Source: Amphiscolops sp. MND2022
Lineage: Eukaryota
DNA length: 64,000 bases
Direction of reading: 5' to 3'
Assembly (NCBI GenBank): GCA_964187785.1
Contig: OZ076409.1
Coordinates: 65,722,001-65,786,000 of the forward strand
The notes beneath the pieces are model-generated. The model was given only the letters and a program-made list of their open reading frames with translations, did no database searches and had not been told where the DNA came from. The stretch's first letter is position 1, and each line of letters opens with the position of its first letter. Below are positions 16,721 to 45,586 of this stretch, piece after piece. Position numbers and translations under genes: made by a program.

Positions 16721-16919
16721 TCCGTCCTACCAGTTCCCGATTCCGAATCCTATTAGTTTCATTATTCGATCCCGAAAATTTGATTGTATTTATTTAACAT
16801 TAATCACTGAAACGAATAACATTTAACATGTAATCTGAACATCCACGTAAGTAAACCTTTTTGTGCAAAAAAAGTTATTTTTGTTTTAAAAAAAATCTCA
16901 TCTTCTCGAGCCCGGAGGA

Positions 16920-17280
16920 TGTTGCGTTCACAATAAGATTAAAATTGAACTGACCAATAACAAGGCGCTATGGCGAAATAGGTTAGTGCGCTTTATTCTA
17001 AAGCCGTAGATCGCGGGTTCGAATCCCGGTAACTGAAAATATTTAGTACTTACAAAAATAGAAAAAATAATGTTTTTCTATTCATTACTCATTTGCTATC
17101 TCGAAGTTATGTTTATTAATATTTGTCAACAACTGTATGCTCATTTATCAGTTTTGTCATTTTGTACAGATTAACTGTTTCGTCATTGTGGGCCGATAAT
17201 ACATTGAGAAATAGAGTGTTGCCTTTTTCCTATTTTTCAAATAGAAGAGACGAGATAACTGCCGAATGTTATTTCTTTTA
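16920..17280 (+). repeat. BEL/Pao 3' LTR (361 bp)
   Basis: Copy of 7841-8202, preceded by a short PPT-like CCCGGAGGA and followed by TSD TAAAT. Confidence 0.95.
16964..17035 (+). ncRNA. tRNA-derived A/B-box module in the 3' LTR
   Basis: Same sequence as 7885-7956. Confidence 0.7.
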
Positions 17281-18171
17281 TAAATGCTGGTTGACGAAAA
17301 ACTCTAATTTAGAATTCTGTTTTAAAGTTTATATGGCCTTGAGACGCACTGCAGAGATATTACCGTGTGCCTGGTTTGGCAAAATATGCGCACCGTAGCA
17401 CAATAAATATTCCTGGTTTGTATTCCGATGAGATAGTGTTCAGCAAGTGAGACATCCTACGTCTCATAAACTTGATAGCCCCTCCCGGAGTTATAGCAAA
17501 GGGAGCTGATAAAAAATTCAGGGCTGTTCTTTTATGTTGAATGATTGACTACTACCGCTGGCGAGTTATAGATTTCCAGTTTCCATCGTTTCATTAATTC
17601 ATGCCTAATTTTCTTTTGTGAAACTGGTCACATATTACAGGTGACCAAATGGAAAAAATATAATCTAGACGCGTGATGAAAAGCCCAAAAATTACACAAA
17701 TCACAAAATCATACTTCAAAATTTACAAAATCATTGAGAGTTTTTCATTTGGCACCGATTGAGAGATATTGAAAATAACAAAGCTCTTTGATTTCAAGAA
17801 CCGAAAAAGGTAAACGACAAAAAAGCCTCGCATTGTGTTTTATGAAAAAATATTAGAGCACGATATTCCCCAGCCGTACTTCTGAACAAGAAGAAGAATA
17901 AAAGGCTTGCAAATATGCTGGAAAGCCTCACTTAATTGAGTTTATGGCTGAAGAAACTTTATGGTATTAGGAGGGACGCCCCTATCAGTTTACTTTACAT
18001 CAATTTCATCAGAAATTATAAAATTCAGCGACAACGTGGTTCTTGTTGTAATAGTGAACTTAATATTGTACTTGGGAAGAGGTTATGGAAGAGTTTATGG
18101 GTGCATTTAAGCCAGCACTTGTATAGTTTTGAATAAATGGTCTTTAGACCTTGAGAAAATCGAGATATATG

Positions 18172-25045: not shown

Positions 25046-26118
25046 AAACAGTGTAAAATTGAGAGAAAGGAGGAAGTTTACTTTTCCGGTTGCTACAGTT
25101 TCTGCCTTTCTATGTCAATGCACGTTTCAGATATTATCTCTCCAACTTAAGCTAAGTTACCATATTTGCAGCGAAGGTGTCAAGCCATGTCCGATTTGGA
25201 ACTGTGGTTTCGAAGTGCCTTCTTTAAAGTCTTAAAGGTTGCTCATTCCATTTCTGATTTCTCCGACATTTGAGTTTTTAGTTTTGACCATTTTCTAAGC
25301 TGGGTACGAAGGATCTGCTGAAATCCCAAAGATCACGAGGTGACTGATTTTTGGTGATACCGAACGGATACAGGTCTAGTGTTCCAAAAACTAAACTATA
25401 ATACTAATAACTCAAAACAATTGTTCTCTAAACAAAAGTTTGCTTAGTAGCTATATTGTTTAATTTCCATATCTCGAGATCCTATCATCGGAATCGGAAA
25501 CATCGAAAAATGAAAAAAACTATGAAAAAACGAAAAAATTGACCTTGCTTGGTTCAATTTAGGCATTTTTTTCCAAATACAGTTCCAATATTTTCCACAA
25601 AATAATGCTAAGGAGCCACAAAATTCATTCTTGAATAAGCATTCAAAAACTGCTGAAGAAGGATCAAAACTGGGAATGTTTCGTCATTTTCGTCCACTTT
25701 GATGCCATTTCGAGGCAATTTTTGTAGCCAGCATTAAAAAGTTGCCACTTTTCTCCGCAAATGCATAAGGTACGGTACGTATATGCGTTTATGATAGTTG
25801 AATTTTGTGTCGGAACCGCTATCATTTGAAGATAAAACTGGAATATGGCCAAGTGCCTCACAAGTGTTTGTATCCAGGGAACCTAACTCTTCAAAAAATA
25901 CTCAGTTTCTGTCAGTAGTAGCAGTCTATGCTGGAATGCTTATCCAATATTCTATTTTGACGAATGAATAGCTTTTAATTCAACTTCTTTTAAAATTTGT
26001 ATTTTAGGGTCTGCCTCTAAGAAAAGTTTTTTCTGGGAGTCCTGTTTGAAGTCTGATTTGAATAATGTTTGTGTATCTCTGCACTGACTGAATATGTGAT
26101 TTCAAGCTTTTTTCCAAA

Positions 26119-26826
26119 TGTAACGTCCGGCTAGCGGCGCACATCTAGGAAGAGGGATAATGCCTAGGATGCTTAAACAGGAGACCGTTGTCTTACTACA
26201 TACCTAGACACTAGTTTTTCATCCCAAAATGGTCTCCATGGGGGACTTTTCTAACGTCTAAGGAGACTCCTCTAATTAGAGCTCCGAGGCAACGCGCCGG
26301 CACTCTCAAAGTCCGGACACGCCCCACAAGCCTGTAAAAACGTATCCTAAGGTTTTAGCGCGTTCCTGCCATCTCCTACATACTTCCGAGGTCCAAAAGG
26401 GTGTTTATCCGAAAATTGTCATTTCAACAGTCATGGGCATGAAATGCCGACCTAGAAGGTCAGGCATGGGAAAAATAGCAAAATACATTAACATAAATCA
26501 ACAAAATCAAGGGGATAAGCCCCGAGTGGGAATGGAGTTACTGTTTGTGGGTTCTCGGGGATCCGATCATGTAGTTCTGGAGTGGCTCTGCTCTCCCAGG
26601 GAGGACACAGCACCGGGTAACGTTCTTTGAATTCTATCCCATGGATCTTCATGTCGTCAGTCGTCTACTTCTTTTTCTTCTTCTGTCTTTCTTCTTGTTC
26701 ACTCGTTCTCTCTTTCTTTTTTATGGGCTTTAAGGACCTGCCAGGTCGGCCATTTTGATTCGCACCTTTTTTGGTTCTTGAACGAATTTTTCAACGAAAA
26801 TTTGGTATTGACTGGTGGACGTTACA
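26119..26826 (-). repeat. Gypsy 3' LTR (708 bp)
   Basis: TGTAACGTCC...GGACGTTACA perfect 10-bp terminal inverted repeat. No differences from 44462-45169 seen by eye. Confidence 0.97.
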
Positions 26827-26840
26827 TCCTCCCCGGGCCG
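26827..26840 (-). promoter_or_regulatory. Polypurine-tract-like plus-strand primer site
   Basis: Minus strand CGGCCCGGGGAGGA immediately before the TGTAAC of the 3' LTR. Confidence 0.65.
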
Positions 26841-27410
26841 TAGTTTGTCGTCCTCGGCAAACGAGAGGATGCTCGCACCCAAAGGGTACTCTGAGGTCCA
26901 CAGAAAAGGTCTTATGTCAAAGTTACGTTGATATCACACTATTATTCTTTTCGCCTCACTACTACATGTCTAGCACCTTAAAGCCATCGAATTCAAAAAG
27001 CACTGATTTTTAAATTAAAAATTTTGCAGTCGGATTCTTTCTTTAAAAGGTTTTTTCACTAACTACTCAGTTCAAGTTAAAATTTCTTTTTCTAAAATAG
27101 GGCCCCTGCGCGGCCAGATGAGTAATAACAACTTTTGGGCTTGGTAGAAGTTTCCAATTCAAATCAAAACGGGAGGGCACCGAGCCGGGACCCACCCAGA
27201 GGATGTAACTATATTGCATTGTTACAATGGTAGCAAAGTATAATATACATCAAACAAAACTCAGGAATTAAGGTTTATTGCACTGAAAGTTTTCAGCACC
27301 AGTAAGATGGTATAGCACAACTAAAATCAAGAATTGGCATTAATATATTGACGACAGGGTCCTTTATGCTCAATTATGTTCTAACAGTCTTGAGGGTCCA
27401 GAGGACTCCT

Positions 27411-30400
27411 TTATTCCAGCAGTTGATCCTGTGGGGTTTCTTGGACTGAGGTGTTGCCCATGGCATCCACTGTGTTCTGATACTCTTCGTCTATTGTCAG
27501 CAGATTATTGAGCTCTGACTCTATGTCCGCTGCCTCCAAGTTCGAGATATTGGTTTCCACTTCATCTCTTACAGGAGTGGTGGCGTCAGAGAACGTGAAG
27601 TTATTACCAGTCATAGGTTCCCCTGATGGTGGCATGACGTCTGGCACATCATCTTGTGCTCTTTCCACCAATATTTCATTGGAGTCTTGACTCACGTGGG
27701 GTGTGGGGAAGGCGGTGCGAGAGCTGCCAGAGGCAGCTTCGCTCAAATCGCTAATTCCCGGGATAGCTTCGAGTGATTCCAAGTTCGGCAAACCGTCCGC
27801 TAATTCTTGGTGGCCATATTGGATGAACAGCTGCCTGAACGTTCGTATTCCCCTAGCGTACTCTTCGCCCACTGCTCGAGTACGTTCTCGTTGGAGACCA
27901 TGCAGGCGCACGAATATCTCTAGTGCCATACGCGGATTGCTGGGAACGTCAGTGTTCACGGGCAAATCTTTCTTGCTTGGTTCCTTGGCTACTGTCGGAA
28001 TAGTTGTCGGCAGCTGTTGGAAGGTCTGGTGTATAGCGAGGTCCACGAGCTCCGGCTGGGCCCAACACGTAATGGTATTCAAGATTCTGGCGGTGTGCTC
28101 GCGGGGCTCTGTCCTCGCACAATATATTCTGGAAGTGTCACACGCATAGGGATACAATAACCTAGTAGGTTCTTCTCCTTTTCGACGACCACCCAATCTT
28201 TGGATAATTGTTCTCAAGATACGCAGGACAACTGGCACGTCCCACCCTTCGAATGTCGCCACTGCTCCATTATTTGGATCAATAGGGGTGTGCAGCCAAA
28301 CTACAGGATGGATTTCCATCGGCAAAGGGAGCGAGCTACGTGCTCTCGCCTTGATCAAGGAGAGATAGTTGTGTTCCACTTGTTGGCGGTCTTTGATTAC
28401 GGTATACGCCATGGGAGGTCGCAAGTTGGCAAAGCTGTGTATCACTGATTGATAGGTGGGACCCTGAAGGGGCCCATCAGAGGTCACGAAATGTAGAATC
28501 GAGAGGGAAGGGCTCACTGCTGCCACTCGCAGGGTTTGCGTTGGATAGCGTAGGGCCATGACTGCGCCGAAGATGGGCCAGACTATCGGAGCAATGAGGG
28601 GCATTAGGTCCTCTGTTTCTACGAGCATTAGTGTTGCAACTTGTGTAGGGAACAGGAACCCAGGAAGTTGATTGGGGTCTCGGTTAATAGCTGGGCACTC
28701 ATCCAGAGGATGCATAACGCCCGAGACATTGACCCAGGTGGAATAAATCCACACTAGCAGTGCTTGAACGTTTAAGTCCAGCTGCGTCTTTAATTTCAAG
28801 GAACCCGCTGGGTCTAGGGTTTCAATGAGCGCAGATATCCAACCTCTTTGATTCTGCGAGAAGACTAGGAAGCTGAACAGGGCTGAGCCTCCCTTGTTGA
28901 GCACGAACTTTTGTATGAGGGCCGATGGTCCTCTGTACATCATGGTTAACCCCACGGCCATCAGGTACGCTAGTAGTTCACTAACGGTCGCTCTTTCCAT
29001 GGCCTCCATGTAGAGTCGCATTCGCTGCTCATCTAGGCCGTACTCGGCTTGTACTAAGGAAGGAAGCCAGAAGGGAGAGATGTTGTGGAGAAATACGGGA
29101 AATGTTATACCCAGTCGGTCCGCGACTTGGCCCAAAGGTTCTCGTAGTTGATCGTGCCATGTTTGGTACGTGTGTGTCGGCTCTTGAATATTCTTTTGTA
29201 CAACGTCTCGAGCCAGTATCAACAGCATGGCCAATGTCGGCGATCTTTGCCCAGGTTCAACATCTAATGATATTTGAGCCATGGGGAAGATGGAGGAATT
29301 CTTTCTATCACCCAGAACCGTCTCGGTTTCTTTCATTAGCTTTGTGAGTTCCTTGTGAAACTTGGGTTCGTGTGTTTTTTCGTCTACAGTTGACTCGTCC
29401 CGGCGTTCAAACCAGAGGTTATCCACCAGGTTATTGCGCTCACTTTCGTTTGGGTCGTTTACGATTCTGTCTCCACGTTCATTCAATGATCGGCGAGCCA
29501 TTTCCATCCCGTAGTCGAATGCTGCTGCTTCATCCACTACCATTTGGGAGTTTCCACGGTAACCGACGTATGATTGAAGGGCCTTTGAGACTTCAGCAAT
29601 GAAGGCTGGGTAAGAGGCTTCACAAGGGCGCCAGCTATTATTGCTGATGCGTAAATTGGGGGCCACAATGTAAAAGGCCAGATCTCTTGCGTACGCTGCC
29701 TCCATTACTAGGTATAAGAATTGCTGAAGGGTCCGAGGAAGGTGCATGTAGCCTGGAGGCGACATAAATACCGTTCCAGTGACAGCTTTCCTTCTGCGCA
29801 TAATTTGGGCAATATTCGCCATTGTCTCCACGTAGTTGGTCACTTCGTCGGTGACGAACCCCTCAGTAAATCTTTCGTGGTCTGGTCGGAAAAATTCCAA
29901 GGTCCCTCGCAAAGCGAGGTGATCTATAACATTTGAATATACCAGCAACGGAGGTAATGGGATGGTCTCTGTTCCCGCTTGGGTGAATACTTTGTCGGTC
30001 ACTTCTGCCATTTCGTTCAGTGTTGTACAGGGCATGTTCATTATTCTGACATCCATAAGGGTGTTGTGAGAGTTGAATGAAGACTTCATCGTCGAGTCGA
30101 CGAAGAAGGCTATTCTGGTTTTCTGCAAGAGATCCTTTCCCATGGGCAGGATTGTAATGGGGTCCCTCGCATAGTTTTTTGTTCGCAAGCGGTCTTCGTC
30201 GAAGCGGCCAGGGCGCTGTCGGAGGAAGTTGTCAGGAATACGCATGTATGTCGAGTTCACTCTCTCCAATTCTGCTCGCATGCGATTGAACCATGGGGGG
30301 CATCCATCTTGAGTGAACACTGGTTTCTTGACGGGACGATTGTAGAGTACTCCCACTGTGGCTTTTTCTATTTTCTGCCTTGTGGCGTAGTCCCCAGTTC

Positions 30401-31505
30401 CCGTTGAGGTCTCGAATTTCTGTCGTAGAGGGTCTTCTGGTGGCGTTGTGGTTGGTATTTCCCGCTGCAGACGCAGTGCGTCGCGTGCAGTGATATCCAG
30501 CTGCCGTTTTTCCGAATGTGTTAGGAGTTCGTGTGTTATTCTCGGTCTCCTTGTTTCTGGTTGCGTAGGTGAGGCAGACAAGGGTTGCGGGGCACTGGTC
30601 GAGCTCGATTGTTTGCTTTGCATGGTCGCCTCTCTGGCTCGCTTTCCAGCTTTTATTTTCTCCCGGAGGTCTACCACAGTGTTGGCTGCCTTACTTTCTG
30701 CTTTTTGTTGTTCTCGCTGACGTTCTCGGAATTGTGGGTCCATTTGGAAGCCTACTAGGCTAGCTGGTTCTGAGGCTTGTGGAGGTTCCGAGACTTGAGA
30801 TTCGGTTCTGGAAGACGTCTGAGTTAATTCTTCATATGAATCTTTGAACGTCACCGTTCTCCTGGGCTGTTCTTCGCTCAGGGTAGCACTTGCTGTATTG
30901 TCTACTTGCACCCCTCCCCCCTGAAAGGTAGATGGAGGCATGAAGGTAGAGGATGGGGTGGTCAGTAGGCGAATGCCTTCCGATGCCAGGGGCATGGGCG
31001 GTGTTAGTACTGGGGGTGGCACGATTGGCAAAGTGCAGCTGAACTGCACCGGGTGCGGTGAGGGCAACGGGGTCGTAGTTTGCGTCTGTAATGTCTGTAG
31101 TGCTGACTGTGAAATACGGAGTGATCGTTCTTGATCCATGGGAGGCCTGGTAGGTTCTCCATAGACTACGTGAGAGCGAGGGTCTATGAGGCTATGGGTC
31201 AAGTCATACCCTTGCCAGGTGCCGTCGCGAAAAGTGGCGGAGCGTTCTATCGGGCCGACTCGGCTGGTGATAGTGAAGCTAATATCAGGGTACTCAGCTT
31301 GAGCTTGGGTTTGGGCGATGATCATGGCAAAGCCAGTAATCATTGTAGGTGTCGCTCCGTTTAGAAGGGTGTCTTGGACGAGGGCTAGCTGGTCGACTCG
31401 ACCATCTATCTCGCTCATCATTGGAGGTGGGTCGTTCCTAGTGGATGGTTGGGCACGCGCAGCGTTCTGGGGTGCAGGCAGGCGGTGTCGCGCAGATGGG
31501 TCCAT
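27411..31505 (-). CDS. Env-position accessory protein (1364 aa from first ATG) with central SGNH-like domain
   Basis: Intact ORF between pol and the 3' LTR. Low-complexity P/S/T N-terminus; RIAFFVDST, MNMPCTTL, LLVYSNVID, VFMSPPG, SWRPCEASYPAFIAEVSKAL (about 29575-30120); then a helical/hydrophobic region and an acidic tail. No signal peptide. The ORF is certain; the domain call is by eye. Confidence 0.85.
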   Translation of the reverse strand: MDPSARHRLPAPQNAARAQPSTRNDPPPMMSEIDGRVDQLALVQDTLLNGATPTMITGFAMIIAQTQAQAEYPDISFTITSRVGPIERSATFRDGTWQGYDLTHSLIDPRSHVVYGEPTRPPMDQERSLRISQSALQTLQTQTTTPLPSPHPVQFSCTLPIVPPPVLTPPMPLASEGIRLLTTPSSTFMPPSTFQGGGVQVDNTASATLSEEQPRRTVTFKDSYEELTQTSSRTESQVSEPPQASEPASLVGFQMDPQFRERQREQQKAESKAANTVVDLREKIKAGKRAREATMQSKQSSSTSAPQPLSASPTQPETRRPRITHELLTHSEKRQLDITARDALRLQREIPTTTPPEDPLRQKFETSTGTGDYATRQKIEKATVGVLYNRPVKKPVFTQDGCPPWFNRMRAELERVNSTYMRIPDNFLRQRPGRFDEDRLRTKNYARDPITILPMGKDLLQKTRIAFFVDSTMKSSFNSHNTLMDVRIMNMPCTTLNEMAEVTDKVFTQAGTETIPLPPLLVYSNVIDHLALRGTLEFFRPDHERFTEGFVTDEVTNYVETMANIAQIMRRRKAVTGTVFMSPPGYMHLPRTLQQFLYLVMEAAYARDLAFYIVAPNLRISNNSWRPCEASYPAFIAEVSKALQSYVGYRGNSQMVVDEAAAFDYGMEMARRSLNERGDRIVNDPNESERNNLVDNLWFERRDESTVDEKTHEPKFHKELTKLMKETETVLGDRKNSSIFPMAQISLDVEPGQRSPTLAMLLILARDVVQKNIQEPTHTYQTWHDQLREPLGQVADRLGITFPVFLHNISPFWLPSLVQAEYGLDEQRMRLYMEAMERATVSELLAYLMAVGLTMMYRGPSALIQKFVLNKGGSALFSFLVFSQNQRGWISALIETLDPAGSLKLKTQLDLNVQALLVWIYSTWVNVSGVMHPLDECPAINRDPNQLPGFLFPTQVATLMLVETEDLMPLIAPIVWPIFGAVMALRYPTQTLRVAAVSPSLSILHFVTSDGPLQGPTYQSVIHSFANLRPPMAYTVIKDRQQVEHNYLSLIKARARSSLPLPMEIHPVVWLHTPIDPNNGAVATFEGWDVPVVLRILRTIIQRLGGRRKGEEPTRLLYPYACDTSRIYCARTEPREHTARILNTITCWAQPELVDLAIHQTFQQLPTTIPTVAKEPSKKDLPVNTDVPSNPRMALEIFVRLHGLQRERTRAVGEEYARGIRTFRQLFIQYGHQELADGLPNLESLEAIPGISDLSEAASGSSRTAFPTPHVSQDSNEILVERAQDDVPDVMPPSGEPMTGNNFTFSDATTPVRDEVETNISNLEAADIESELNNLLTIDEEYQNTVDAMGNTSVQETPQDQLLE

Positions 31506-31835
31506 TGGAAACGATAATAAAGGGATGTTTAGCACCGAAGATTGTGATGGCAAGACTGATTTGGCGTGATAAGTATGGGGGCCGCGCAGAGGCGAGGCAA
31601 CAGGACAAAACTGAAAAACAGGTCACAGTTGGAGATAAGACATCACATAGACGGGTGGGCAGTTAAGCTCTTTAGGACGAACACACAAACATAAGGTTAA
31701 AAAGTTACAGTGGTTAGTATTAAAATTTGCGCTTGTCGGCGCGGTTTTGTTAAAATTTTAAAGTGCTTCGAATCAACTACAGGCAGTGCAAAAGGCCAGT
31801 GGCCTGATATGCCAAGTAGAGGGCGAGACGTGCTC

Positions 31836-34800
31836 TTAACTACCGCCAAAGTTGGCAGAGGTAATCGACGCTATTGTGACATAGACGCGATCGTGCAAGA
31901 CTATTGTTATGTTGTGATCTGCAAAGTGGTCGCGTAGGGTGGCGTACCAGGCTGGGAGGAGGTTCATCGATCGCTCAGGATCATAGATGGGCAAGTGGAT
32001 TCTGGTAATGTGGTTTCGATGGAGTTGAGTTATCAAATTCGTCAAACACGCATGTAATACCTCATGTAAGAGCGGATGCTTGTTTGATGCTCTGGTACAC
32101 AGAAGGAAGATTTCGTTATTCCAGGGTGCAGTTGGCGAGCGGGTTAAGCGAATTGCGGTGCCAACTGATGGTCTTAGACGAAATATGTTTTCTTGACCGT
32201 ATTCGCGAATGACGTAACGGATCGTAGCCGAGTAAGAGAACAAATCCGCAGGGCAGCATAATATTACGGTGCCAGGTGCCTGCAGGATATCTGTGTCGTC
32301 ATAGCTTATCCAAGGTAAGTAATTCGGTCTGGTTTTAGGCTGGGTTATGAGCCATTTGCCGGTGGTTCTGCTCTGATCATCGGTGGGTCGGGGTGTCAAA
32401 TGCTGCAAGATTGCTTTTCGGTCTTCCCAGACGGTTCGTCGTAGAGGTCTATCTCCCAAGTTTGTGGATGACCAATCGTGTACTATTGAGAGTGCTTCGC
32501 TAATTGTCACGGGTTTTTCTGGTGTATAAGATTGTCGATCCAGGAAGTGTATCTTCGCCTGCCGGCAAAAGACTACCGCTATTAACTGTAGCCAGTGTTG
32601 GCTTAGGAACTTGCCACGATAAATATCGGCCATGTGGAAACAAAGCGTGTTCTCAGGTTCGGTTACCGTACGTAAACTTTCTAAGCACATCAGTAAAGTT
32701 GTTGGAGATACCAATGTCGTTGCGTCTAGAGAGGTGACAAGTAGCCACCATCCATTGGTGGGCTGATATATGTCTCCCGGCGGGGAGGCAATGTGATATT
32801 TCTCCCACAGTTGGTGTGCAGTGATACAGCGAATCATCTCCGGGCTACTATCCTCTTTTGCTAGCTCGCCGAACGTCATCGATGGTGGCAAAGGTGGTAT
32901 GATGGCATGTAGGGTGAATTCTAGACCGCCCCGATGGGGAAGTGTCCATTCTTTGAATCGGTAAGTCGGGCAGTCAGAGGGAGATGTCGCGTGCATCGCT
33001 TTGAGTGTTTCTTCCAGTGGTGGTATCGCTTCTCGTTCCACACTGGTGAAAGTTTTTTCTACCGTGATGACCAAATGGTGCACTAGCGGGGGTGTCTCCA
33101 CCTTTTCTCGTTGGGCTTGCACGGCTAAGATCTCATGTTGTGGGTGACAATGTGTCCTAGCCATAAAGAGATCCCTGGCAGGGACTACTGCTCCCCGGGC
33201 CAATCGGTCGTCCGGTGACTGGCGAGTCAGATGCTTGACGCAACTACAGTTGCGGGAACCACAGGTTCCACACTTGTAACGTGGTGCTCTGTTAGCTCGC
33301 AGTTGATATCGTGATGTTCGCGATGATGGTCTTGATTCTGAATCCTGGACATCTGGTGGTTGTTGGCTTTCGGGTATTTCTGGTAGAGTCATCGCTCGGT
33401 CTAGTTTTCGAGGGGGTGCACGAGTGCTCGTTCTTGCTCTGGGGCCTCTTCTGGGTCGTGCGGTTTGGGTTCGTGACGATGTTGTGGTTCTAGTAGATGG
33501 TATAGCGCGGGATTTTCCTCTACCCGGTGGTCGGCCTCGAGGCCGTCCTCTACTATTCGTGGTATTGGGTTGCGTTGAGCAATGGCTTGGACTGCGATGG
33601 GTTGTCTCTTCCTCATTCTCAGTTTCTGACTTTGGTTTATTTTCTATCGGGTCGATCGGGTTCTCTAGTTGGGGGCCAAACAAGGGAAAGTTACTCAGGG
33701 TGTCTGTTAGGGACGGATTGGATAGTAGGGGGGCTGAGGTCCCTGAGGGTGATGGTATCAGACTTGTAGGTACGGCCGGCTGAATTTCCTCCTGGTCGGA
33801 GTACAGTGGTTCCAGGTCGTCTAAGTCGGGGAACACTACTGGCGGTGGTGGGCTCTGAATCGGTGGTTCATTTTCCTCTGTTTCGGAATCTGAGTTGGAG
33901 GGGTACCCGAAGTGGCTGAATCTTCTTCTGGGTATTCCTTGTTCGAGTGCCGTTTGGGTACGAGTCTGAATGGTACGAGGTGGAATCGATCCTGTCGGTT
34001 CCATTTCGAAGGATGCTTCCGGAAGTTGTTCCGGTAGGAAAGAGTCTTGGGAGATGTCGGACGCTATCTCTTCATTGCTTTCTTCTACGTACGGATCAGC
34101 AATAATGGCTACGTTTTGATTCGGCCCAAAGGGCTGGTGTGCGGCCCAGTCCCAAGGGGCAGGCACATGCTTTTTCAATCTTTCGTAGTGGACCTTTTGG
34201 CCAGTGTCTAGTACGTATAATCGTCCGTCCTGCAACACGTCGGTTACCTTGTGGGGTCCGCGCCATGCGCGAATCAGCTTGCGGGTGCCACCCTTGGGTA
34301 TGATATGGCAGAACACCCACACCGCATCGCCTACAGCATGCGCTTTGGCCTTCAGGTGGCGGTCAAACTTCAGCTTCTGGCGTAGCTGTGCTTGGTGTGT
34401 ATTTCTTCTGACGAGTTCATGGATTTCTTGCTGTCTGGCTAGAAGATGTTCTACGAATTCTTCTTTGGAATCGAATCCTCGGGCAGCAAATTCTGGGTAG
34501 ATGAATGACAGGGGAATTGATTTCTCGGCTCCGTGTTGGAGCATATAGGGAGAGAATCCAGTGGTTGCGTGTCTAGTTGAATTGTACGCACCGAGGATTC
34601 CATCAATATGCTCATCCCAATCCTGCATTCGTCGAGAAGTGTAGACTCTCAGCAGTGTGAGTAACGTTCGGTTCTGCCTTTCCACGAGTCCATTCCCTCG
34701 AGGATGCGCTGGAGTGGATGTCACTTTAGTGACTTGCGAGGCTTTCATTAGCTCCTGTGCGATTTCAGCTGTGAAATTCGTGGCATTGTCGGATTGCATC

Positions 34801-37800
34801 CGTGCTGGGGTGCCGTGCCTGGCAAACCATTTGTTAAGGATGATTTTAGCTGTGGTTTGGGCATCATATTCGTCGTGGGCACATGGAATGGCCTCGGCAA
34901 ATTTCGTGAAGTGGTCTATCATGACTAAGAGACCGGTGTTTCCCGAGTCGGTTTTGCAAAGTTTGAGGTGGTCGAATTGTACTAGGTCGTTGAAATTGCT
35001 ACTGTTGATGTTCTGCAAGGGGTAGCAGGGGTTCCCGGCGGGGTGTTTTGTTTGCTGGCAGGTCAAGCAGTGCTTGATGTGATTGACTATGTCACGCTTG
35101 ATGCCCGGCCAGGTGTGCCGTTCTTGTACTCTCGCTAGCACCTTCCCTACGCCCTGATGTCCCGATTCGTCGTGTGCCCTATACAGAATCTCGTGCTGGT
35201 ATAGTTGTGGCATGACTATCATACACGGTCGCACGTGCAGCGCACGTTGTTGCGGAACGTAGTTGACGCAGAGAATGTCGTCTGGGTTCAGGAAGAGCAG
35301 GTCTTTCTTTTGATGGAAGTAGCGTCGTGCGAAGTCCTGTACGTCGTCGGGGAACATCGTTTCCTCCAGTGGTTCGCCTTTCATGAGTTTCCTCAACGCT
35401 AGGAGGTGTACGTCCCTATTTTGTGCTAGGTGCAGGTCTTTGAGGCCACGTCTAGTCAAAAAGTGTTCATGCAGCTCTGTCCCAACTGTTCTAAGGGCGT
35501 TGGCTTGTGTTTGGCATTCGGGTGGCATCTCTTCAAGCACAGGATCAGGTTTTTCAGTGTCTAGGCGTGCCGGTGGCACTTTGGTCGTGATGCTGAGGAT
35601 GTGAGTGGGTCGGTGATCCTCATCTGTGGTAGGTGTCGCCTCCCACTGTACTTGAGGATACCATGGGGCACCATTCACCGGGGGCTCTTGCAGGCTCGTT
35701 TTGGGTCTTTTTCCCAAGATATACAGCAGTGGGAGTTGGGCTCGAGCTTCCGGCGGGAGCTCTGGGTGGTTTGGTATTGGGCGTCCGTGTTTGTCGAAGT
35801 ATGGTACGGTGGGGAGCGCTTCATAGTCTTCTTTGGTCATGAAGTTGAATCCTTCACTCACTTCCGGTAACTTCTCGAGGATTTTCTCCCGGTGCACGTA
35901 GTCGTTGGTTCGTTTGCTGAGGCCGTCTACGTTTCGATGCTGTGTGCGAGGTCGGTGGATCGTCTTGAAGTTGTATTGATCTAGACGGGCTATCCAGCGA
36001 CCTATCATGGCTTGGTCCATGGAGTACGTTTTAAGCCATGACAGGGCCTGATTGTCCACACGGAGCGTGAACTCTCGGCCTGCGAGATATGAATGGAATT
36101 TCTCGATGAAGTAAAATACTGCGTACATTTCCAACTTGGGTGCTCCATAGTTTAGCTGTGTCTTCGTCAGGGATTTGCTCCCGAAGACTATTGGCCGCAA
36201 AATAGTCTTCCCATTGTGTTCTTGTTCCTGGTGCAGGATTCCAGCTATCGCTACTGCGCTAGCATCAGTATCGAGCACGAATCGTCCGTCTTCATTTGGG
36301 GCTGCCAAGGCGGTCGCGTTTGCCAGTGCTTCCTTTACTGCATCGAAGGCTTCTTGGTGTTTCGTTTCCCAGTGGAAATGCTGACTTTTCTTGAGCAACT
36401 CTTGCAGGGGTTGCACTTTGGCTGCATGAAACGGTACAAAGTCCCTGTAATAGTTTGCAAACCCCAGGAAGCTCTGAAGCTCCTCTTTGTTTCTCGGGGG
36501 CATCCATTCTTGGATTTTAACTATAGCTTCGGGGTCTGGTCTGATGCCCTCCGAGGATACCACTCGCCCCAGGTACTTCGTCTCCGTGCGCATGAAATCA
36601 CACTTCTCGGCGCGCATCTTGAATCCAGCCTCTCGGAGACACTCGAATACTTCCTTGATTCGTACGATGTGGTCTTCTATGGTTTCCGTGGCGATAACTA
36701 TGTCGTCAATGTAAGCCATGACGACACTCCCGTGCCGCTGCTGGATCCGTTGCAGGGCCCGTGTAATAGAGCGCTGAAATGTGGCCGATGCATTGCATAG
36801 CCCAAAGGGCATGCGCCGCCATTCGAACAATCCCAGTTCACAGGCAAATGCTGTTTTCCTTCTATCGCGCTTCTTTAGCGGTATCTGCCAGAAGGCCCAC
36901 GCTAGGTCGATACTTGTGAAGATTTTCGCATTGCCTATCCGGGATAGACTTTCATCAATCCTGGGCAATGGGAACGCGTCCTTGACCGTTACGTCATTGA
37001 GCGGTCGAAAGTCACAACAGAAGCGAAGTTCGCCTGTTTTCTTTTTGACCATGACTATTCCGCTTGCCCACGGTGAATAGGAGGGTTGAATTAGGCCAAG
37101 GGCCAGTAGATTCCGTACCTCTTGATTAGCCTTTGCTGCCTTATCCGGGGACATGCGCCGAGCGCCTTCTCTATGCGGGATAGCTTCCGGCTCTAGTTCT
37201 ATGCGGTGTTTTGCTATTTTGCACCTCCCTATGTCGGCTTTATGTTTCATAAAAAGGTCATCGTACTCGCTCAGAACGCTTGCTAGTTGATCTCTCGCTC
37301 CCTCCCCCCACGAAGAAAGGACGGAAGAAAGGTCTGGACCTGGTATAGGTTTTAGCAATTGTGGGTCAGTCTTAGCACGCTTTTCGCTTTCCGATAATCC
37401 TTCTTCAGACATCTCAGTAGAGGACAAGAAGTTTTGAGCAAAAGAACTATATTCTGAACTCGTTTCGTTTAACCACTCTTCGGTATAAACTTTATTAACT
37501 TGTTCAAACAAAGATTTATCAACTTCGGTTGCCGTGTCGGCAGCCACAGGTTGCAACACAAATTTTGTAGTTTCTGCCTTACCGAGGACAGTTTTGGTTT
37601 GAATGGTTACGTTTTCAGAGGGGGTAGTGTTTCGTAGGGCTATGAAGACAATGCCTTCATCTCCAACAGACGTCAATGTATCTTCTGAAACAAAGGGGGA
37701 TCGTTTAGATGTCCCCTGGGGGCGAATCATTACGTTTCGGAAAAGGTACTCGTTGTGCTTTTGAGAAATGATTTGGGCTCGTACTAGCCTACGCTCATAG

Positions 37801-40800
37801 GGGCCTAGAACTACTTTTTCGGTGGATATCACTAGGGATGGCTCATGATCACTTACCTCATGGACGGGTTTGAAGTGGCGTGGCGCTTTGGGGTCTCGTA
37901 TAGTGACCCTCATGGCCGTCAGGTCCACGAGAACATTGTAGGTGCGCAAGAAGTTTCTGCCAAGTAGGAAGTCTTCCGCGCCTAGGTGATCGGCAATGAC
38001 TATGAAATTGGTTCGGAGGGTGTATCCGCCCAACTGGAAGCTAACATTTTCGGCGATTCCAATGGTGTTGATGGTTTTACCGTTGGCGGCATACAGTTGG
38101 ATGTCATACGGTAGGAGGCTCAAGGCGTGGGGTGATGCAATTTTTTGATAGGCTTTGAGGGAGAGAATGGAGACACCGGAACCGGTGTCTATCATCCCGT
38201 ACAAGGGTATTGGTTCCTGGATAGTGTTGCCAAAGGCAACCACCAGGGATGCCCTTTCGTCAATACGAGCCTCCCCCTGGGCATCTTGCACTCCGATGTT
38301 ATAACATCGTAACTCCTGGCGGCCCAAATACAATCCCTGAGGGAAGTGGCCTTCTAAGACTACAATAGCATCAAATTTCATGTCTACACCGTCTACGTTA
38401 ATGGCTACCGGCACCGGAGAAACGGTTTTAACTTTCTGTATTGGGGCCAGTTTCGTTTCGTCTTCTCGCGCAAAATGTGGGAGCGGTCGGGCTGCGATGG
38501 TATACTTCACGTTTCTGCATAATTCTTCCTTTAGTTGCGAGAGCGTCAGCGTGGGTCGCGTTTTCTGTTCGGCCGAGAGTAGCAAGTGTATTGAGATAAG
38601 TGTCTCTGTGCAATCTGGGGCGGGTGCCTCTAGTGTGGTGAGTACTTGTTTCTCGCCACAAGTGACTACTACAGGTCGGGAGGGACCTCCGTCTTCCGCT
38701 ACTGATATTACCCGGACTTGGTCGTCTTGACTCAGGCCATCGAATTGACTTGGTGAAGGAGCATACCAAGCTGCACGGATTTGTTCTTCGTGACCCATCT
38801 GTTCCGAGGCCATGCATTCTGACGCCGAGTGTTCAGTACGGCCGCAATTAATGCAAAAGGCAACAGTGCCTTGGGTTGGTAGGGATGCTGGGAACACATC
38901 ATAGTTTAAGCCGTGTGGCTGGGAGGGGCACATCCAACTACCCGTCGGGTTCGTGTGACAGGAGTTCACCTGCTGTTGTACTGGCTTCCGTGCACGGTCT
39001 TTCAGGGGGCAGTCTACCACAAAATGCGATGGGTCTCCGCAGTTGAAGCACGCTCTTTGGGGTTGCGGTCGATAGGCTGCCGGTGGCATTGGTTGTTGTT
39101 GGTATGCTGCTGGTTGAGGAGGCTGTTGTTGTGGCACTTTTTGGGCAGGTGCGGGTGCTACTGGGGACTGATTTGGTTGTTGGATATTGGCTTGTTGTTG
39201 TGGAGGAGGCATCATTGGGTAGTTGTCCGAACGGGTCGAGCCTCGCATGCGTAAGTATTGTTGCACTGTGAAGCGGAGGGCTTCCACAGTTGGCGGGGTT
39301 TCCACGTATTGTTCCGGTGCATACATTAGCGCGAGGTTTCTTTTTAGTTCGAAGTTGCGTACTCCCTCAATGAATCTTTGCATGATTTCGTATCGACGAA
39401 CTGTCACCTCTTCATTGGGGTAACCTTGACTACGCAGGCCTTCGAGGGCATCAAGGTATTGCATGTAGTCTTCATCGCTATTCTGGTTGCGGGTTCTAAA
39501 TTGCTGTTGGATGTGGATTTTGCTGGAACCTGTCCCGAAGCGACGCGCTAATAATGCGAATACTTTTTCGTCAGTGTCCCTCTCTGCTTCGGACTTATTC
39601 GTGATGTAATCCCTGGCTTCATGCTCTAGATACTCGATTATTGTCCACGCCTTATCGAGGGGGGTTGCCTTAGGGTGTGCTTTTTCCAAATGGCGTTTCA
39701 TTAACATCATCCATCCATCTGCGTTTCCGTCTCGGGTTCCTCTGTATTTCGTGGGCTTGTTTTTGGATTCCTTGGCGGCGAGCAACGGCTCTAAGCCTTT
39801 AGACATGGCCGTAGATATTGCTTCCGCCAGTGCTTGTCGTTGGGTAGTTCTCGGCGTGTCTGGAGTCTCTTCTGCTATTGAGGGCATTTCTTCGATGTCG
39901 CTGTGTTCGCCTTTGCCTTGTTCTAAATTCCGCTTGTTTGTCATTTTGCGCTGCGTACTGGTGGCCACTGGCCGCGGAACGAAGTCTCTGAACGTTTGCG
40001 TTCGCGCAGGTGGGCGGAATGCTGCGCTTGAATCGGCCGTGTAGTAGCTGGTCCTGCGGGCGTTCGTCTCGTCGGCGGCGGAATAAAAATCGCCGGAGGT
40101 CGATGTTCCGCGAGCGTACTGGTCGAGCGACGGCGGGTCAGTCATTGGATCCGTACCTGCGTCTCGTGATTCCGTGTGGGTCACTTTAGCCATCTTGCTA
40201 GCTTTAGACAGGTCACGCCTGTACGTTGCGGGTGGCATTAGTTTTGGAGGCCTAGGAGGTTCTACTGTGTGTTGTGCCACCGTTCTATAATGAGGTTGGG
40301 GAGCTTCGCTTGTAGATGGTATTTCGGTCTGTTGATATTTTTGGGGAATCCGCGGCGCCGTTTGTGCTTGCTGCGCGGGGGTTTGCGACACGATTGCTTT
40401 CACTCCCAATGTCAGATCTTGCATTGCCATCATCAAGTCCGCCATGCGGACATTGGAGTCTATGTCGCGACGCTGCATCGTGTTGGTCATTGCTTTCATG
40501 CGCTCATCTGCTTGGCGGTCCCTTTCTCTCATTATTGCAGACATCTCGGCCATGCGAGCGTCCGCTGTAGTTTCTCTCTGTTTAATCAGATCATTGAGAG
40601 ATGCCATTGACGCTTCCAGTCGACCTTGATTTTGTCGCCCTTCCGCTTGCATTTCCAACAGACCTTTTCGTAGCTCGTCCATGTCCCTCATTATCATGTC
40701 GGCGCGCATCTCATGTTCGTTGTTTTCTCTCGCCAGCCTCGTCTGGACTTGAGCTAATTGCGCCAGACTACTCTGAAAGTCTTCTCGAACCGTTTGCACT

Positions 40801-41495
40801 TCCTTTCTCGCTTTGGTTATTGTTGAGTCGAGATTGGTGTCGGCGCTAGCTTGAGAGTCTGGTGTGTGAGACGTTCGACTCGCATTCGCATAGTTGATTT
40901 TTGGTGTCACCGAGGGTGGCGTTCGAAAAACATATCTTAACGGATTCTCGGTTATGTTCGTCTTCGAGTTTTTCGCTGGTCCGTTCGACGTTTTGGTCGG
41001 TGCTTCCGATAGCGCATATCCGCTTCGGAAGGGATTTCCGCCTATGCTATTGATCATCTCTTGGGAACCCAGGGGGTTCCTTTCGACTTGTGCCATCCTT
41101 GGGTCCGCCCGCGGAGTGTCATTTTGTTCGTTGGCGGTACCAACAATGCTGAGCTCACTGATGGGCCCTTGGTTGGAGTTTGGCCAGTTTTCCAAGCTGT
41201 AGTCAGTGACTTCCAGCGGAGGCCGTGTGTCTCTTTGCGTGTTGTTCTCAGCATCATCCGGTAGATTGGTGCTATCGGGGGAGGCTCGCGAGGAGTTGGG
41301 CTGGGTATTGGCAGCGGCTATTTCCGCGTTTTGTTCCTGGCTCGGTACGAAGTCAGACATAGCTTCTGAAATTACGGCTGCTATGGCTGAATCTAATCTA
41401 CATTCGTTTTGTTCGGTTGTGGTTTCCGTTCTTCTTCCGAAAGGGTTGGTGGCATGGAAGTCGCTAATGATGGCGTTAGTCTCGCGTCGTTCCAT
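31836..41495 (-). CDS. Gypsy gag-pol polyprotein (3219 aa) with extra protease-like, dUTPase-like and macrodomain-like regions
   Basis: ATG in GCCATGG at 41495. Coiled coil, capsid-like region (KYRGTRDGNADGW), two CCHC knuckles, protease IDTGSG (DTG at 38181-38189), RT YIDD (36702-36713), RNase H TDASA, integrase H..H..CLTC / FDHL / SDNA / VER, GPY/F-like WRGPH, then a long C-terminal extension. Confidence 0.97.
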   Translation of the reverse strand: MERRETNAIISDFHATNPFGRRTETTTEQNECRLDSAIAAVISEAMSDFVPSQEQNAEIAAANTQPNSSRASPDSTNLPDDAENNTQRDTRPPLEVTDYSLENWPNSNQGPISELSIVGTANEQNDTPRADPRMAQVERNPLGSQEMINSIGGNPFRSGYALSEAPTKTSNGPAKNSKTNITENPLRYVFRTPPSVTPKINYANASRTSHTPDSQASADTNLDSTITKARKEVQTVREDFQSSLAQLAQVQTRLARENNEHEMRADMIMRDMDELRKGLLEMQAEGRQNQGRLEASMASLNDLIKQRETTADARMAEMSAIMRERDRQADERMKAMTNTMQRRDIDSNVRMADLMMAMQDLTLGVKAIVSQTPAQQAQTAPRIPQKYQQTEIPSTSEAPQPHYRTVAQHTVEPPRPPKLMPPATYRRDLSKASKMAKVTHTESRDAGTDPMTDPPSLDQYARGTSTSGDFYSAADETNARRTSYYTADSSAAFRPPARTQTFRDFVPRPVATSTQRKMTNKRNLEQGKGEHSDIEEMPSIAEETPDTPRTTQRQALAEAISTAMSKGLEPLLAAKESKNKPTKYRGTRDGNADGWMMLMKRHLEKAHPKATPLDKAWTIIEYLEHEARDYITNKSEAERDTDEKVFALLARRFGTGSSKIHIQQQFRTRNQNSDEDYMQYLDALEGLRSQGYPNEEVTVRRYEIMQRFIEGVRNFELKRNLALMYAPEQYVETPPTVEALRFTVQQYLRMRGSTRSDNYPMMPPPQQQANIQQPNQSPVAPAPAQKVPQQQPPQPAAYQQQPMPPAAYRPQPQRACFNCGDPSHFVVDCPLKDRARKPVQQQVNSCHTNPTGSWMCPSQPHGLNYDVFPASLPTQGTVAFCINCGRTEHSASECMASEQMGHEEQIRAAWYAPSPSQFDGLSQDDQVRVISVAEDGGPSRPVVVTCGEKQVLTTLEAPAPDCTETLISIHLLLSAEQKTRPTLTLSQLKEELCRNVKYTIAARPLPHFAREDETKLAPIQKVKTVSPVPVAINVDGVDMKFDAIVVLEGHFPQGLYLGRQELRCYNIGVQDAQGEARIDERASLVVAFGNTIQEPIPLYGMIDTGSGVSILSLKAYQKIASPHALSLLPYDIQLYAANGKTINTIGIAENVSFQLGGYTLRTNFIVIADHLGAEDFLLGRNFLRTYNVLVDLTAMRVTIRDPKAPRHFKPVHEVSDHEPSLVISTEKVVLGPYERRLVRAQIISQKHNEYLFRNVMIRPQGTSKRSPFVSEDTLTSVGDEGIVFIALRNTTPSENVTIQTKTVLGKAETTKFVLQPVAADTATEVDKSLFEQVNKVYTEEWLNETSSEYSSFAQNFLSSTEMSEEGLSESEKRAKTDPQLLKPIPGPDLSSVLSSWGEGARDQLASVLSEYDDLFMKHKADIGRCKIAKHRIELEPEAIPHREGARRMSPDKAAKANQEVRNLLALGLIQPSYSPWASGIVMVKKKTGELRFCCDFRPLNDVTVKDAFPLPRIDESLSRIGNAKIFTSIDLAWAFWQIPLKKRDRRKTAFACELGLFEWRRMPFGLCNASATFQRSITRALQRIQQRHGSVVMAYIDDIVIATETIEDHIVRIKEVFECLREAGFKMRAEKCDFMRTETKYLGRVVSSEGIRPDPEAIVKIQEWMPPRNKEELQSFLGFANYYRDFVPFHAAKVQPLQELLKKSQHFHWETKHQEAFDAVKEALANATALAAPNEDGRFVLDTDASAVAIAGILHQEQEHNGKTILRPIVFGSKSLTKTQLNYGAPKLEMYAVFYFIEKFHSYLAGREFTLRVDNQALSWLKTYSMDQAMIGRWIARLDQYNFKTIHRPRTQHRNVDGLSKRTNDYVHREKILEKLPEVSEGFNFMTKEDYEALPTVPYFDKHGRPIPNHPELPPEARAQLPLLYILGKRPKTSLQEPPVNGAPWYPQVQWEATPTTDEDHRPTHILSITTKVPPARLDTEKPDPVLEEMPPECQTQANALRTVGTELHEHFLTRRGLKDLHLAQNRDVHLLALRKLMKGEPLEETMFPDDVQDFARRYFHQKKDLLFLNPDDILCVNYVPQQRALHVRPCMIVMPQLYQHEILYRAHDESGHQGVGKVLARVQERHTWPGIKRDIVNHIKHCLTCQQTKHPAGNPCYPLQNINSSNFNDLVQFDHLKLCKTDSGNTGLLVMIDHFTKFAEAIPCAHDEYDAQTTAKIILNKWFARHGTPARMQSDNATNFTAEIAQELMKASQVTKVTSTPAHPRGNGLVERQNRTLLTLLRVYTSRRMQDWDEHIDGILGAYNSTRHATTGFSPYMLQHGAEKSIPLSFIYPEFAARGFDSKEEFVEHLLARQQEIHELVRRNTHQAQLRQKLKFDRHLKAKAHAVGDAVWVFCHIIPKGGTRKLIRAWRGPHKVTDVLQDGRLYVLDTGQKVHYERLKKHVPAPWDWAAHQPFGPNQNVAIIADPYVEESNEEIASDISQDSFLPEQLPEASFEMEPTGSIPPRTIQTRTQTALEQGIPRRRFSHFGYPSNSDSETEENEPPIQSPPPPVVFPDLDDLEPLYSDQEEIQPAVPTSLIPSPSGTSAPLLSNPSLTDTLSNFPLFGPQLENPIDPIENKPKSETENEEETTHRSPSHCSTQPNTTNSRGRPRGRPPGRGKSRAIPSTRTTTSSRTQTARPRRGPRARTSTRAPPRKLDRAMTLPEIPESQQPPDVQDSESRPSSRTSRYQLRANRAPRYKCGTCGSRNCSCVKHLTRQSPDDRLARGAVVPARDLFMARTHCHPQHEILAVQAQREKVETPPLVHHLVITVEKTFTSVEREAIPPLEETLKAMHATSPSDCPTYRFKEWTLPHRGGLEFTLHAIIPPLPPSMTFGELAKEDSSPEMIRCITAHQLWEKYHIASPPGDIYQPTNGWWLLVTSLDATTLVSPTTLLMCLESLRTVTEPENTLCFHMADIYRGKFLSQHWLQLIAVVFCRQAKIHFLDRQSYTPEKPVTISEALSIVHDWSSTNLGDRPLRRTVWEDRKAILQHLTPRPTDDQSRTTGKWLITQPKTRPNYLPWISYDDTDILQAPGTVILCCPADLFSYSATIRYVIREYGQENIFRLRPSVGTAIRLTRSPTAPWNNEIFLLCTRASNKHPLLHEVLHACLTNLITQLHRNHITRIHLPIYDPERSMNLLPAWYATLRDHFADHNITIVLHDRVYVTIASITSANFGGS

Positions 41496-44428: not shown

Positions 44429-44445
44429 TCCCTCTGTGGTCGCCA
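44429..44445 (-). promoter_or_regulatory. Primer binding site (tRNA-Arg type), 16 nt from the LTR
   Basis: Minus strand TGGCGACCACAGAGGGA. Its complement ..GTGGTCGCCA resembles tRNA-Arg 3' ends; the isotype is inferred. Confidence 0.75.
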
Positions 44446-44461
44446 TAAAAACTATTCCAGA

Positions 44462-45169
44462 TGTAACGTCCGGCTAGCGGCGCACATCTAGGAAGAGGGA
44501 TAATGCCTAGGATGCTTAAACAGGAGACCGTTGTCTTACTACATACCTAGACACTAGTTTTTCATCCCAAAATGGTCTCCATGGGGGACTTTTCTAACGT
44601 CTAAGGAGACTCCTCTAATTAGAGCTCCGAGGCAACGCGCCGGCACTCTCAAAGTCCGGACACGCCCCACAAGCCTGTAAAAACGTATCCTAAGGTTTTA
44701 GCGCGTTCCTGCCATCTCCTACATACTTCCGAGGTCCAAAAGGGTGTTTATCCGAAAATTGTCATTTCAACAGTCATGGGCATGAAATGCCGACCTAGAA
44801 GGTCAGGCATGGGAAAAATAGCAAAATACATTAACATAAATCAACAAAATCAAGGGGATAAGCCCCGAGTGGGAATGGAGTTACTGTTTGTGGGTTCTCG
44901 GGGATCCGATCATGTAGTTCTGGAGTGGCTCTGCTCTCCCAGGGAGGACACAGCACCGGGTAACGTTCTTTGAATTCTATCCCATGGATCTTCATGTCGT
45001 CAGTCGTCTACTTCTTTTTCTTCTTCTGTCTTTCTTCTTGTTCACTCGTTCTCTCTTTCTTTTTTATGGGCTTTAAGGACCTGCCAGGTCGGCCATTTTG
45101 ATTCGCACCTTTTTTGGTTCTTGAACGAATTTTTCAACGAAAATTTGGTATTGACTGGTGGACGTTACA
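44462..45169 (-). repeat. Gypsy 5' LTR (708 bp)
   Basis: Direct repeat of 26119-26826. Confidence 0.97.
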
Positions 45170-45416
45170 AAATTAGGCAATAGTTCCAAAAACGTTAGGT
45201 TATCTCATACAACAAATTTGCTACCAATAAAAATTTACAGAACTTGAAATTAATGGATCACTTCTATGCAATAACGTAACCAATTAGAATTATACATTAA
45301 GAACATCAGGAAGTTTTGAAACATAGTTGTTGGCAAAACTTATGGCAGTTTAACTGAAGATTCTGATAAAGTTTTAGGTTTATCAAATGTAAGGTTGAGG
45401 GTTACCTCAACTAAAA

Positions 45417-45586
45417 CTGTCAACTAAAACTTACAGTTGCTCCAATCTCAAACGACGTTCCTCGTGAAATACAATCGTCAAAACACACAATTGGTTACAT
45501 ATATGTAACCAATTATGTGTTTTGACGATTGTATTTCACGAGGAACGTCGTTTGAGATTGGAGCAACTGTAAGTTTTAGTTGACAG
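45417..45586. repeat. 170-bp spacerless palindrome
   Basis: 85-bp arms centred on TACATA|TATGTA (45501/45502), one mismatch seen. Confidence 0.95.

Follow-up and report, generated by a model that had tools for sequence, protein, structure and literature searches.

We analysed a 64,000-nt stretch of the genome of Amphiscolops sp. MND2022 (assembly GCA_964187785.1, contig OZ076409.1, forward-strand positions 65,722,001 to 65,786,000; hereafter the window), which holds a long terminal repeat (LTR) retrotransposon of 19,051 bp on the minus strand (26119-45169). This Gypsy element, active in the recent past, encodes Gag and Pol in one open reading frame (ORF) of 3219 amino acids (aa), followed on the same strand by a third gene, ORF3, and the 3' LTR. 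A pair of conserved splice sites would remove the replication enzymes and join Gag and the protease in frame to ORF3, whose middle domain is predicted to adopt the SGNH hydrolase fold. We think it probable, though well short of certain, that alternative splicing of one long gag-pol frame yields a Gag-protease-ORF3 polyprotein and that a pseudo-esterase is carried with Gag into the particle. SGNH domains in the ORF3 of Gypsy elements were already known; what seems to be new here is that a splice would put a large, probable SGNH pseudo-enzyme in the place of Pol behind Gag-protease, in elements that make 3-bp target-site duplications.

Splice sites between the protease and ORF3

The donor site lies just behind the protease (Table 1). 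Across gag-pol it is the only G|GTRRG at one aligned position that is common to the window element (W) and two others of the lineage, D and C, and it falls in phase 0 (further elements are labelled A2, B, E and F). In natural copies, 40 of the 41 loci that covered the site (50 were given, of which 42 matched) read AG|GT(A/T/G)(A/G)G(T/C), while the encoded residues vary between E and Q and between S and G. The variants were GTAGGT (18), GTAAGT (10), GTTAGT (10), GTAAGC (1), GTGAGT (1) and one mutated site. As a comparison, in 24 conserved degenerate columns nearby the most frequent third base accounts for 0.32-0.82 of the copies. A candidate donor in the leader, TAG|GTGAGA near 41831, was rejected, since that stretch is missing from the sister element A2.

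The acceptor in the window reads TTTTTCAG, ends at 31611 and is in frame with ORF3. It precedes the start codon of ORF3 by 105 nt in elements W, A2 and D and by 93 nt in F; in the other three (B, C and E) the distance is 12 or 6 nt. At 37 of 40 related loci with sufficient upstream DNA, 20 of them from one family, the best-scoring YAG falls in ORF3's phase 0, versus 99/351 for all YAGs, and at 34/40 it is open through to the N-terminal domain; 20 further ORF3 loci and near-identical sisters, with short upstream DNA, were left out of these counts, the sisters being examined separately. The position of the best acceptor in the phase of ORF3 suggested a coding upstream exon, and both sites are conserved in phase 0 across families with 30% ORF3 identity. 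An earlier note on this DNA, made from the sequence alone, had pointed to an acceptor near 31611 for a spliced or subgenomic mRNA. The acceptor is indeed in frame and conserved, but the evidence indicates an in-frame join to Gag-protease rather than a separate subgenomic ORF3 product.

Spliced RNA would keep both ends of the element as well as its primer site and purine tract, so intron-less genomic copies are conceivable. A pattern scan found one such copy, L189 (L189/L190-L191), in a sister family. Its match to element B stops at the last exon base that had been predicted and continues, in frame, from the predicted first exon base. Two LTRs of 99.5% identity, a 3-bp target-site duplication, gag, protease and a decayed ORF3 are present in it, and it gave no match to reverse transcriptase, RNase H or integrase. 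Because the prediction of the two sites preceded the scan, a chance deletion is an unlikely source of this copy.

ORF3 and its predicted SGNH-fold domain

Searching the 1.07-Gb host genome with the SGNH region of ORF3 gave 131 scored matches of 94-100% identity, of which 103 have a full-length sister ORF3 with an open frame of 1396-1412 aa; both tallies concern the best-scoring candidates and were counted by hand from the list. Six more elements read end to end share the gene order of the window element and have ORF3s 27-93% identical to its own, so that ORF3 stands in the env position in 7/7 elements examined, down to 27-30% identity. The ratio of nonsynonymous to synonymous change (dN/dS) between W and A2 is 0.114 for ORF3 and 0.072 for its SGNH region; for ORF3 it is 0.116 between W and F and 0.081 between C and B, and more distant pairs are saturated. 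Judged by these sequence comparisons, ORF3 is not a chance reading frame; it is old and under purifying selection, with dN/dS about 0.11. The earlier note had described an intact ORF of 1364 aa between integrase and the 3' LTR of an element with apparently identical LTRs, and each of these statements stands: the ORF is where it was placed, it is open in most scored sister copies, and the LTRs agree at every position.

Trees of ORF3 and integrase from seven elements have a common deep split (support 100/100), the one strongly supported split in them. Two distant ORF3 homologs, P0062 and P0133, were traced back to the host genome. P0013 and P0067 do not belong to it (best match there 30-34%), and since these two are foreign to the host, the ORF3 family reaches other genomes. 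For the homologs from other genomes (P0013/P0169, P0067 and P0170), scans of viral and metagenome contigs confirmed no locus. Capture of host ORFs into the region downstream of pol is known in retroelements (PMC6431247; here and below, cited papers are drawn on in excerpt). That ORF3 is such a gene, recently captured and functionless, is refuted by its fixed position in all seven elements, dN/dS of 0.08-0.12 across three family pairs, a tree congruent with that of integrase at the deep split, and homologs outside the host genome; we give this explanation practically no credence.

Sequence searches did not identify the protein: ORF3 matched 0 Pfam families, PDB sequence profiles gave no identification, and in the ESM Atlas the best scores, 0.80 and 0.84, were to helical scaffolds and no higher than expected by chance. 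Its hydropathy has a single KD19 peak above 1.4, at the proline-rich stretch aa 967-985, and no hydrophobic N-terminal stretch; as far as hydropathy tells, the absence of a signal peptide claimed by the earlier note is thus borne out. The hydrophobic helical region that it placed downstream of the SGNH domain is helical in the model, but with one KD19 peak it does not look multi-pass.

An unrecognised envelope or fusion protein, giving the element an extracellular stage, is suggested by the env position, the splice acceptor and the one hydrophobic helix. Hydropathy and cysteine counts reveal none of the marks of Env, namely a signal peptide, a C-terminal transmembrane anchor and a cysteine-rich ectodomain: ORF3 has 8 cysteines in 1364 aa, and a C-terminal anchor is absent in 9/9 homologs, where hydropathy peaks at 1.6-2.2, versus a peak of 2.96 and 17 cysteines in an env-like ORF that belongs to a different family of the host genome. 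No fusogen appears among the 50 listed BFVD rows, nor a fusogen fold among the matches listed for aa 401-1230, the C-terminal half of which is modelled at low confidence. The splice, moreover, would link ORF3 to cytoplasmic Gag. An envelope is therefore very improbable, in line with the earlier note.

The fold of the middle of the protein was approached by structural modelling. In a model of aa 401-1230, confidence is good for aa 401-690 but low across much of the C-terminal half. A wide structural search with it gave 50 best matches that all look like SGNH proteins, the highest Z being 11.0, and Foldseek with the same 830-aa model returned nothing at E<=0.001. The domain modelled by itself (aa 452-660; predicted local distance difference test [pLDDT] 84.5, predicted TM-score [pTM] 0.85) has five strands alternating with helices. 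A VIA search with this model placed 3p94 at the top (Z 13.2, root-mean-square deviation 3.3, 169 aligned residues), with platelet-activating factor acetylhydrolase 1bwp at Z 12.8, and the 50 listed rows read as SGNH-type. In Foldseek, its five best chains had E values of 2e-4 to 7e-4 and the ZfL2-1 esterase 4c1b followed at 1.8e-3; the top match is a designed scaffold, the sister design of which weakly matches a canonical SGNH domain by sequence. These models indicate that residues ~452-660 adopt an SGNH hydrolase fold, a three-layer alpha/beta/alpha arrangement around a five-stranded sheet. This agrees with the fold proposed in the earlier note, whose five quoted peptide motifs are all present (aa 464-643, 30116-29577). 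Sequence profiles do not place ORF3 in the SGNH superfamily: it has no match to the GDSL or OSK profiles of Pfam, and 41 homologs showed no GDSL family either.

Residue conservation was read from 203 aligned rows of stored homologs, each denominator being the rows that cover the position. In block I, just after strand 1, D470 (118/123), S471 (119/123) and T472 (114/123) are strongly kept, so a nucleophile Ser following Asp is in place. Block II has no Gly and reads M-P-C/L; in block III the oxyanion-Asn position before D528 is hydrophobic (I/L/F), and D528 (138/147) and H529 (132/145) are conserved. In block V, R626 occurs in 120/128 rows and His in 2, and there is no Asp three residues upstream, position 623 being variable; the Gly/Asn oxyanion hole and the DxxH of a catalytic SGNH enzyme are thus missing. 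By the block definitions in PMC10792757, the domain lacks four of the five catalytic residues. The ORF3 SGNH domain is therefore probably a pseudo-esterase, as the earlier note had argued from the retained Ser and the replacement of the block V His by Arg.

The same conservation could instead reflect an active, non-canonical hydrolase or acyl-transferase working on lipids or acylated proteins, in which Ser471 would be activated by His529, adjoining the block III Asp, or aided by Arg626. S471, D528, H529 and R626 are all strongly conserved, and the SGNH domains known from retroelements do have activity, with a low turnover (PMC3905857). H529 is nevertheless replaced in the most distant homologs, by D in P0170 and Y in P0067; the oxyanion Gly and Asn and the block V Asp and His are all absent; and a D-S-T can persist for structure, as an Asx motif (PMC10792757). 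We regard an active enzyme as quite improbable, the conserved H529 leaving a small chance of a rearranged site.

Lineage placement and neighbouring elements

The element has the protease-reverse transcriptase-RNase H-integrase order, a reverse transcriptase whose best PDB match is that of Ty3 (E 3e-74), CX2CX4HX4C knuckles (two, at aa 816 and 881, ahead of the protease at aa ~1098-1191), a GPY/F-type motif (WRGPH) followed by a conserved C-terminal tail of ~430 aa, and TG..CA LTRs. These features class it by sequence within Ty3/Gypsy (Metaviridae). Its target-site duplication is not the 4-6 bp of that group: 3-bp duplications accompany the TG..CA ends in 16/18 elements of the lineage (the window element, 9/10 sisters, 5/6 other elements read by eye, and one processed copy), and no duplication of 4-7 bp was matched in 10 sister copies. 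A 3-bp duplication has been given as peculiar to Troyka among LTR groups (Kojima 2025, PMC12440569). Troyka shares this duplication with the window lineage, but it has CG..CG ends, LTRs of 100-400 bp and an internal part of up to 7.7 kb, none of which is found in the window element; it also has a CX2CX8-10HX4C finger and no GPY/F motif, whereas the window element has its two shorter knuckles, no longer finger, and WRGPH (PMC12440569). Membership in Troyka was rejected, as termini, zinc finger, GPY/F motif and size all disagree, and PwRn1/CsRn1, considered as another 3-bp precedent, has a 4-bp duplication. We found no report of a TG..CA Gypsy element with 3-bp duplications in the literature covered, mainly open papers without their supplements or Repbase Reports. 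Ordinary TG..CA ends together with a 3-bp duplication do not fit the published Troyka-only rule, and LTR finders that demand 4-6 bp duplications would overlook these elements.

Table 1. Features of the element in the window (positions of the window; all on the minus strand)
Feature	Position	Strand	Details
5' LTR	44462..45169	-	708 bp, TG..CA ends
3' LTR	26119..26826	-	708 bp, 100% identity to 5' LTR; purine-rich polypurine tract-like run immediately before
3-bp target-site duplication (TTT), left copy	45170..45172	-	
3-bp target-site duplication (TTT), right copy	26116..26118	-	
Primer-binding site, 17 nt	44429..44445	-	complementary to host tRNA-Arg(TCG) 3' end + CCA; 16 nt off LTR end
Spacer, LTR end to primer-binding site	44446..44461	-	16 nt
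gag-pol, one ORF, 3219 aa	31836..41495	-	reverse transcriptase, RNase H, integrase, CCHC, protease by Pfam
Splice donor GAG|GTAAGT, phase 0	37851..37859	-	last exon base 37857; after Glu1213 (codon 1213), just behind protease
Predicted intron, 6246 nt	31611..37856	-	takes out reverse transcriptase, RNase H, integrase
Splice acceptor and 35 in-frame codons (31610-31506) before ORF3 ATG	31506..31620	-	AG ends at 31611
ORF3	27411..31505	-	1364 aa from ATG
ORF3 N-terminal domain, small, conserved	31116..31418	-	aa ~30-130; dN/dS 0.07
ORF3 SGNH-fold domain	29526..30266	-	aa ~414-660, core 452-660; D470-S471-T472, D528-H529, R626-P627
ORF3 helical region, conserved	28206..29258	-	aa ~750-1100; proline-rich hydrophobic helix aa 967-985 (28551-28607)

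The primer site is offset from the LTR by 15-16 nt in the elements inspected. With such a spacer the cDNA end would bear extra bases for integrase processing, which is possibly tied to the 3-bp cut. Some tRNA-Arg genes form a tandem array with a ~173-bp period (G000:C9 from 57537788; L186-L188), and the primer tRNA end has 254 forward matches across the host genome. About 2 kb (42450-44460, minus strand) of the 3-kb non-coding leader retains 76-80% identity between families; that it does so while synonymous sites in the coding part are saturated suggests a conserved RNA structure, for example a packaging signal. The pol tail after integrase (31839-33128, minus strand) has dN/dS of 0.06-0.10. 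We take it to resemble two degenerate macro-type domains, a likeness without support from either Pfam or PDB profiles, where the tail has no match. The interval between protease and reverse transcriptase (~37150-37850, minus strand), which lies within the predicted intron, looks like a possible beta-rich, dUTPase-like remnant.

The host genome has other SGNH-bearing elements. A second Gypsy family (L119, L120, L141; G000:C2:52981001-53001000, C7:67141001-67161000), with 1.7-kb LTRs and a 5-bp duplication, encodes, immediately after integrase, an SGNH domain of canonical type in which the GDSI/GTND/DGIH blocks are intact, and then an env-like ORF of ~700 aa that has 17 Cys and ends in a hydrophobic anchor. 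At L125-L127, L129 and L133-L136, repeated SGNH domains occur in ORFs of ~300 aa with long ORFs after them; these are probably esterases of non-LTR ORF1 type. The window itself also holds a Bel/Pao element (7841-17281, plus strand) with a 2137-aa ORF, LTRs ~98% identical and a 248-aa ORF (9204-9950) with weak Pfam hints upstream of gag; a small Gypsy element (57577-62954, minus strand) with 270-bp LTRs 99% identical and a broken pol; and near-perfect long palindromes at 45417-45586 (85-nt arms, no spacer) and 56877-57051 (77-nt arms). Bel/Pao elements are not known outside animals, so that their presence makes an animal host probable.

A proposed splice route for a third gene

In the model that we favor, unspliced RNA would encode Gag-protease-reverse transcriptase-RNase H-integrase, and RNA in which a splice links the end of the protease with the codons ahead of ORF3 would encode Gag-protease-ORF3, a predicted 1213+35+1364 = 2612 aa in the window element. 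The spliced RNA may also supply the excess of Gag, which an element without a gag/pol frameshift needs. Made together with Gag, ORF3 would enter the virus-like particle, perhaps to be freed there by the element's own protease. Its SGNH pseudo-esterase would have kept the Ser/Asx nest, with Arg occupying the position of the catalytic His, and an Arg in place of His would suit an anionic ligand such as a phospholipid head group or RNA phosphate. By analogy with the ZfL2-1 esterase, binding of such a ligand, the identity of which is a guess, could anchor particle assembly at membranes or at ribonucleoprotein (RNP) granules.

Several observations weigh against this model. The processed copy is single and degenerate. 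In the clade of the window element (W/F/D), scans for intron-less copies with exact patterns gave 0 matches in one case and 3 non-junction matches in another, versus 379 unspliced acceptors, so that for this clade splicing is predicted from site conservation. No scored genome match to ORF3 and its homologs has an open frame above 1451 aa, and a search for fused proteins of 2388-5000 aa, though a weak test, turned up none. The F family carries the weaker donor GTTAGT (10/41 copies). For the pseudo-esterase, hhalign against the canonical SGNH domains of the host genome gave a non-significant probability of 0.2-0.3% from shallow alignments, and residues were assigned to blocks by motif order and secondary structure, without a printed superposition. 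The rarity of intron-less copies may mean that spliced RNA is poorly packaged.

The last point against the model is that most copies retain ORF3's own ATG, 6-105 nt after the acceptor, as would be expected if ORF3 were mainly a free accessory protein. Translated from this ATG on another spliced or internal transcript, it might act on the host, for example against Piwi-interacting RNA or other RNA silencing like OSK-like RNA binders; the Gag-protease splice would then be minor, or its product would be cut immediately, leaving ORF3 to work outside the particle. ORF3 also evolves faster than reverse transcriptase and integrase (50% versus 94-96% identity between W and D), as conflict genes do, and OSK (5a4a) is among the structural neighbors of the aa 401-1230 model at Z 7.6, ranking 47 of 50 there and outside the top 50 in the domain-only search. 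No other donor is conserved, however, and the leaders have none in common; the codons between acceptor and ATG remain in frame, with synonymous changes; the ATG is lost in L033, L037 and L038, which are possibly dead copies; and dN/dS is at most 0.30 in every region in both W versus A2 and W versus F. We consider a mainly free protein unlikely, and retain the Gag-linked product as the better account.

In Ogre elements an intron lies between protease and reverse transcriptase, and its removal joins Gag-protease to reverse transcriptase, the reverse of the logic proposed here. Ogre and Burro resemble the window element as very large Gypsy elements with accessory domains; in Burro, env stands in frame between gag and pol and the accessory domains lie in one continuous ORF, the excerpted text making no mention of SGNH (PMC6431247). 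The Ty1/Copia element EVADE likewise has a single gag-pol frame and a spliced RNA giving excess Gag, but that RNA ends prematurely and encodes GAG only, whereas the one predicted here retains the protease and adds a third gene of 1400 aa (PMC8892269). We found no report of a spliced Gag-protease-ORF3 fusion in the literature covered.

The closest precedent for the domain is in the bdelloid Vesta LTR elements, Gypsy-like elements in which a GDSL/SGNH-fold ORF3 with intact catalytic residues follows pol in place of env and for which a role in membrane passage was proposed (Rodriguez et al. 2017, PMC5408684). The earlier note knew of no such architecture in Gypsy elements; this precedent supplies one. 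The ORF3s of Vesta gave amplicons of only about 1.3 kb, have retained S, G, N and H, and are treated as separate units, with their catalytic activity left open; in the excerpted text, dead GDSL derivatives are reported only for the Penelope-like Athena-L (PMC5408684). Compared by description, the window ORF3 differs in being 1364 aa long and multi-domain, in lacking G, N, D and H, and in its predicted in-frame join to Gag-protease. ZfL2-1 ORF1p and the CR1, RTEX and Penelope esterases likewise have an SGNH domain inside an RNP-forming structural protein, and the ZfL2-1 esterase binds anionic phospholipids even with its active-site residues mutated; that type is non-LTR, in the ORF1 position and catalytically active, whereas the window's is a probable pseudo-enzyme in an LTR element (PMC3905857). 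The OSK domain of Oskar offers a non-catalytic SGNH fold that serves in binding, but it has lost the Ser, with Asp instead, while ORF3 has kept the Ser and lost the His (PMC10792757).

Taken as a whole, these elements may be an undescribed Gypsy lineage of ~19 kb with a splice switch between Gag-protease-Pol and Gag-protease-ORF3. A 150-kDa pseudo-esterase protein would be present in particles at Gag-like amounts, as a non-envelope module for membrane or RNP targeting, perhaps between cells; the 3-bp staggered integration would have arisen independently, alongside a primer site displaced by 16 nt. We offer this full picture tentatively, at slightly less than even chances. A route for the expression of ORF3 is legible from the genome, as a splice after Gag-protease that would put ORF3 where the replication enzymes otherwise follow, and this third gene is ancient, under selection and carried by hundreds of young copies. 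The parallel with the esterases of non-LTR ORF1 proteins suggests that SGNH domains have repeatedly become attached to the structural proteins of retroelements.

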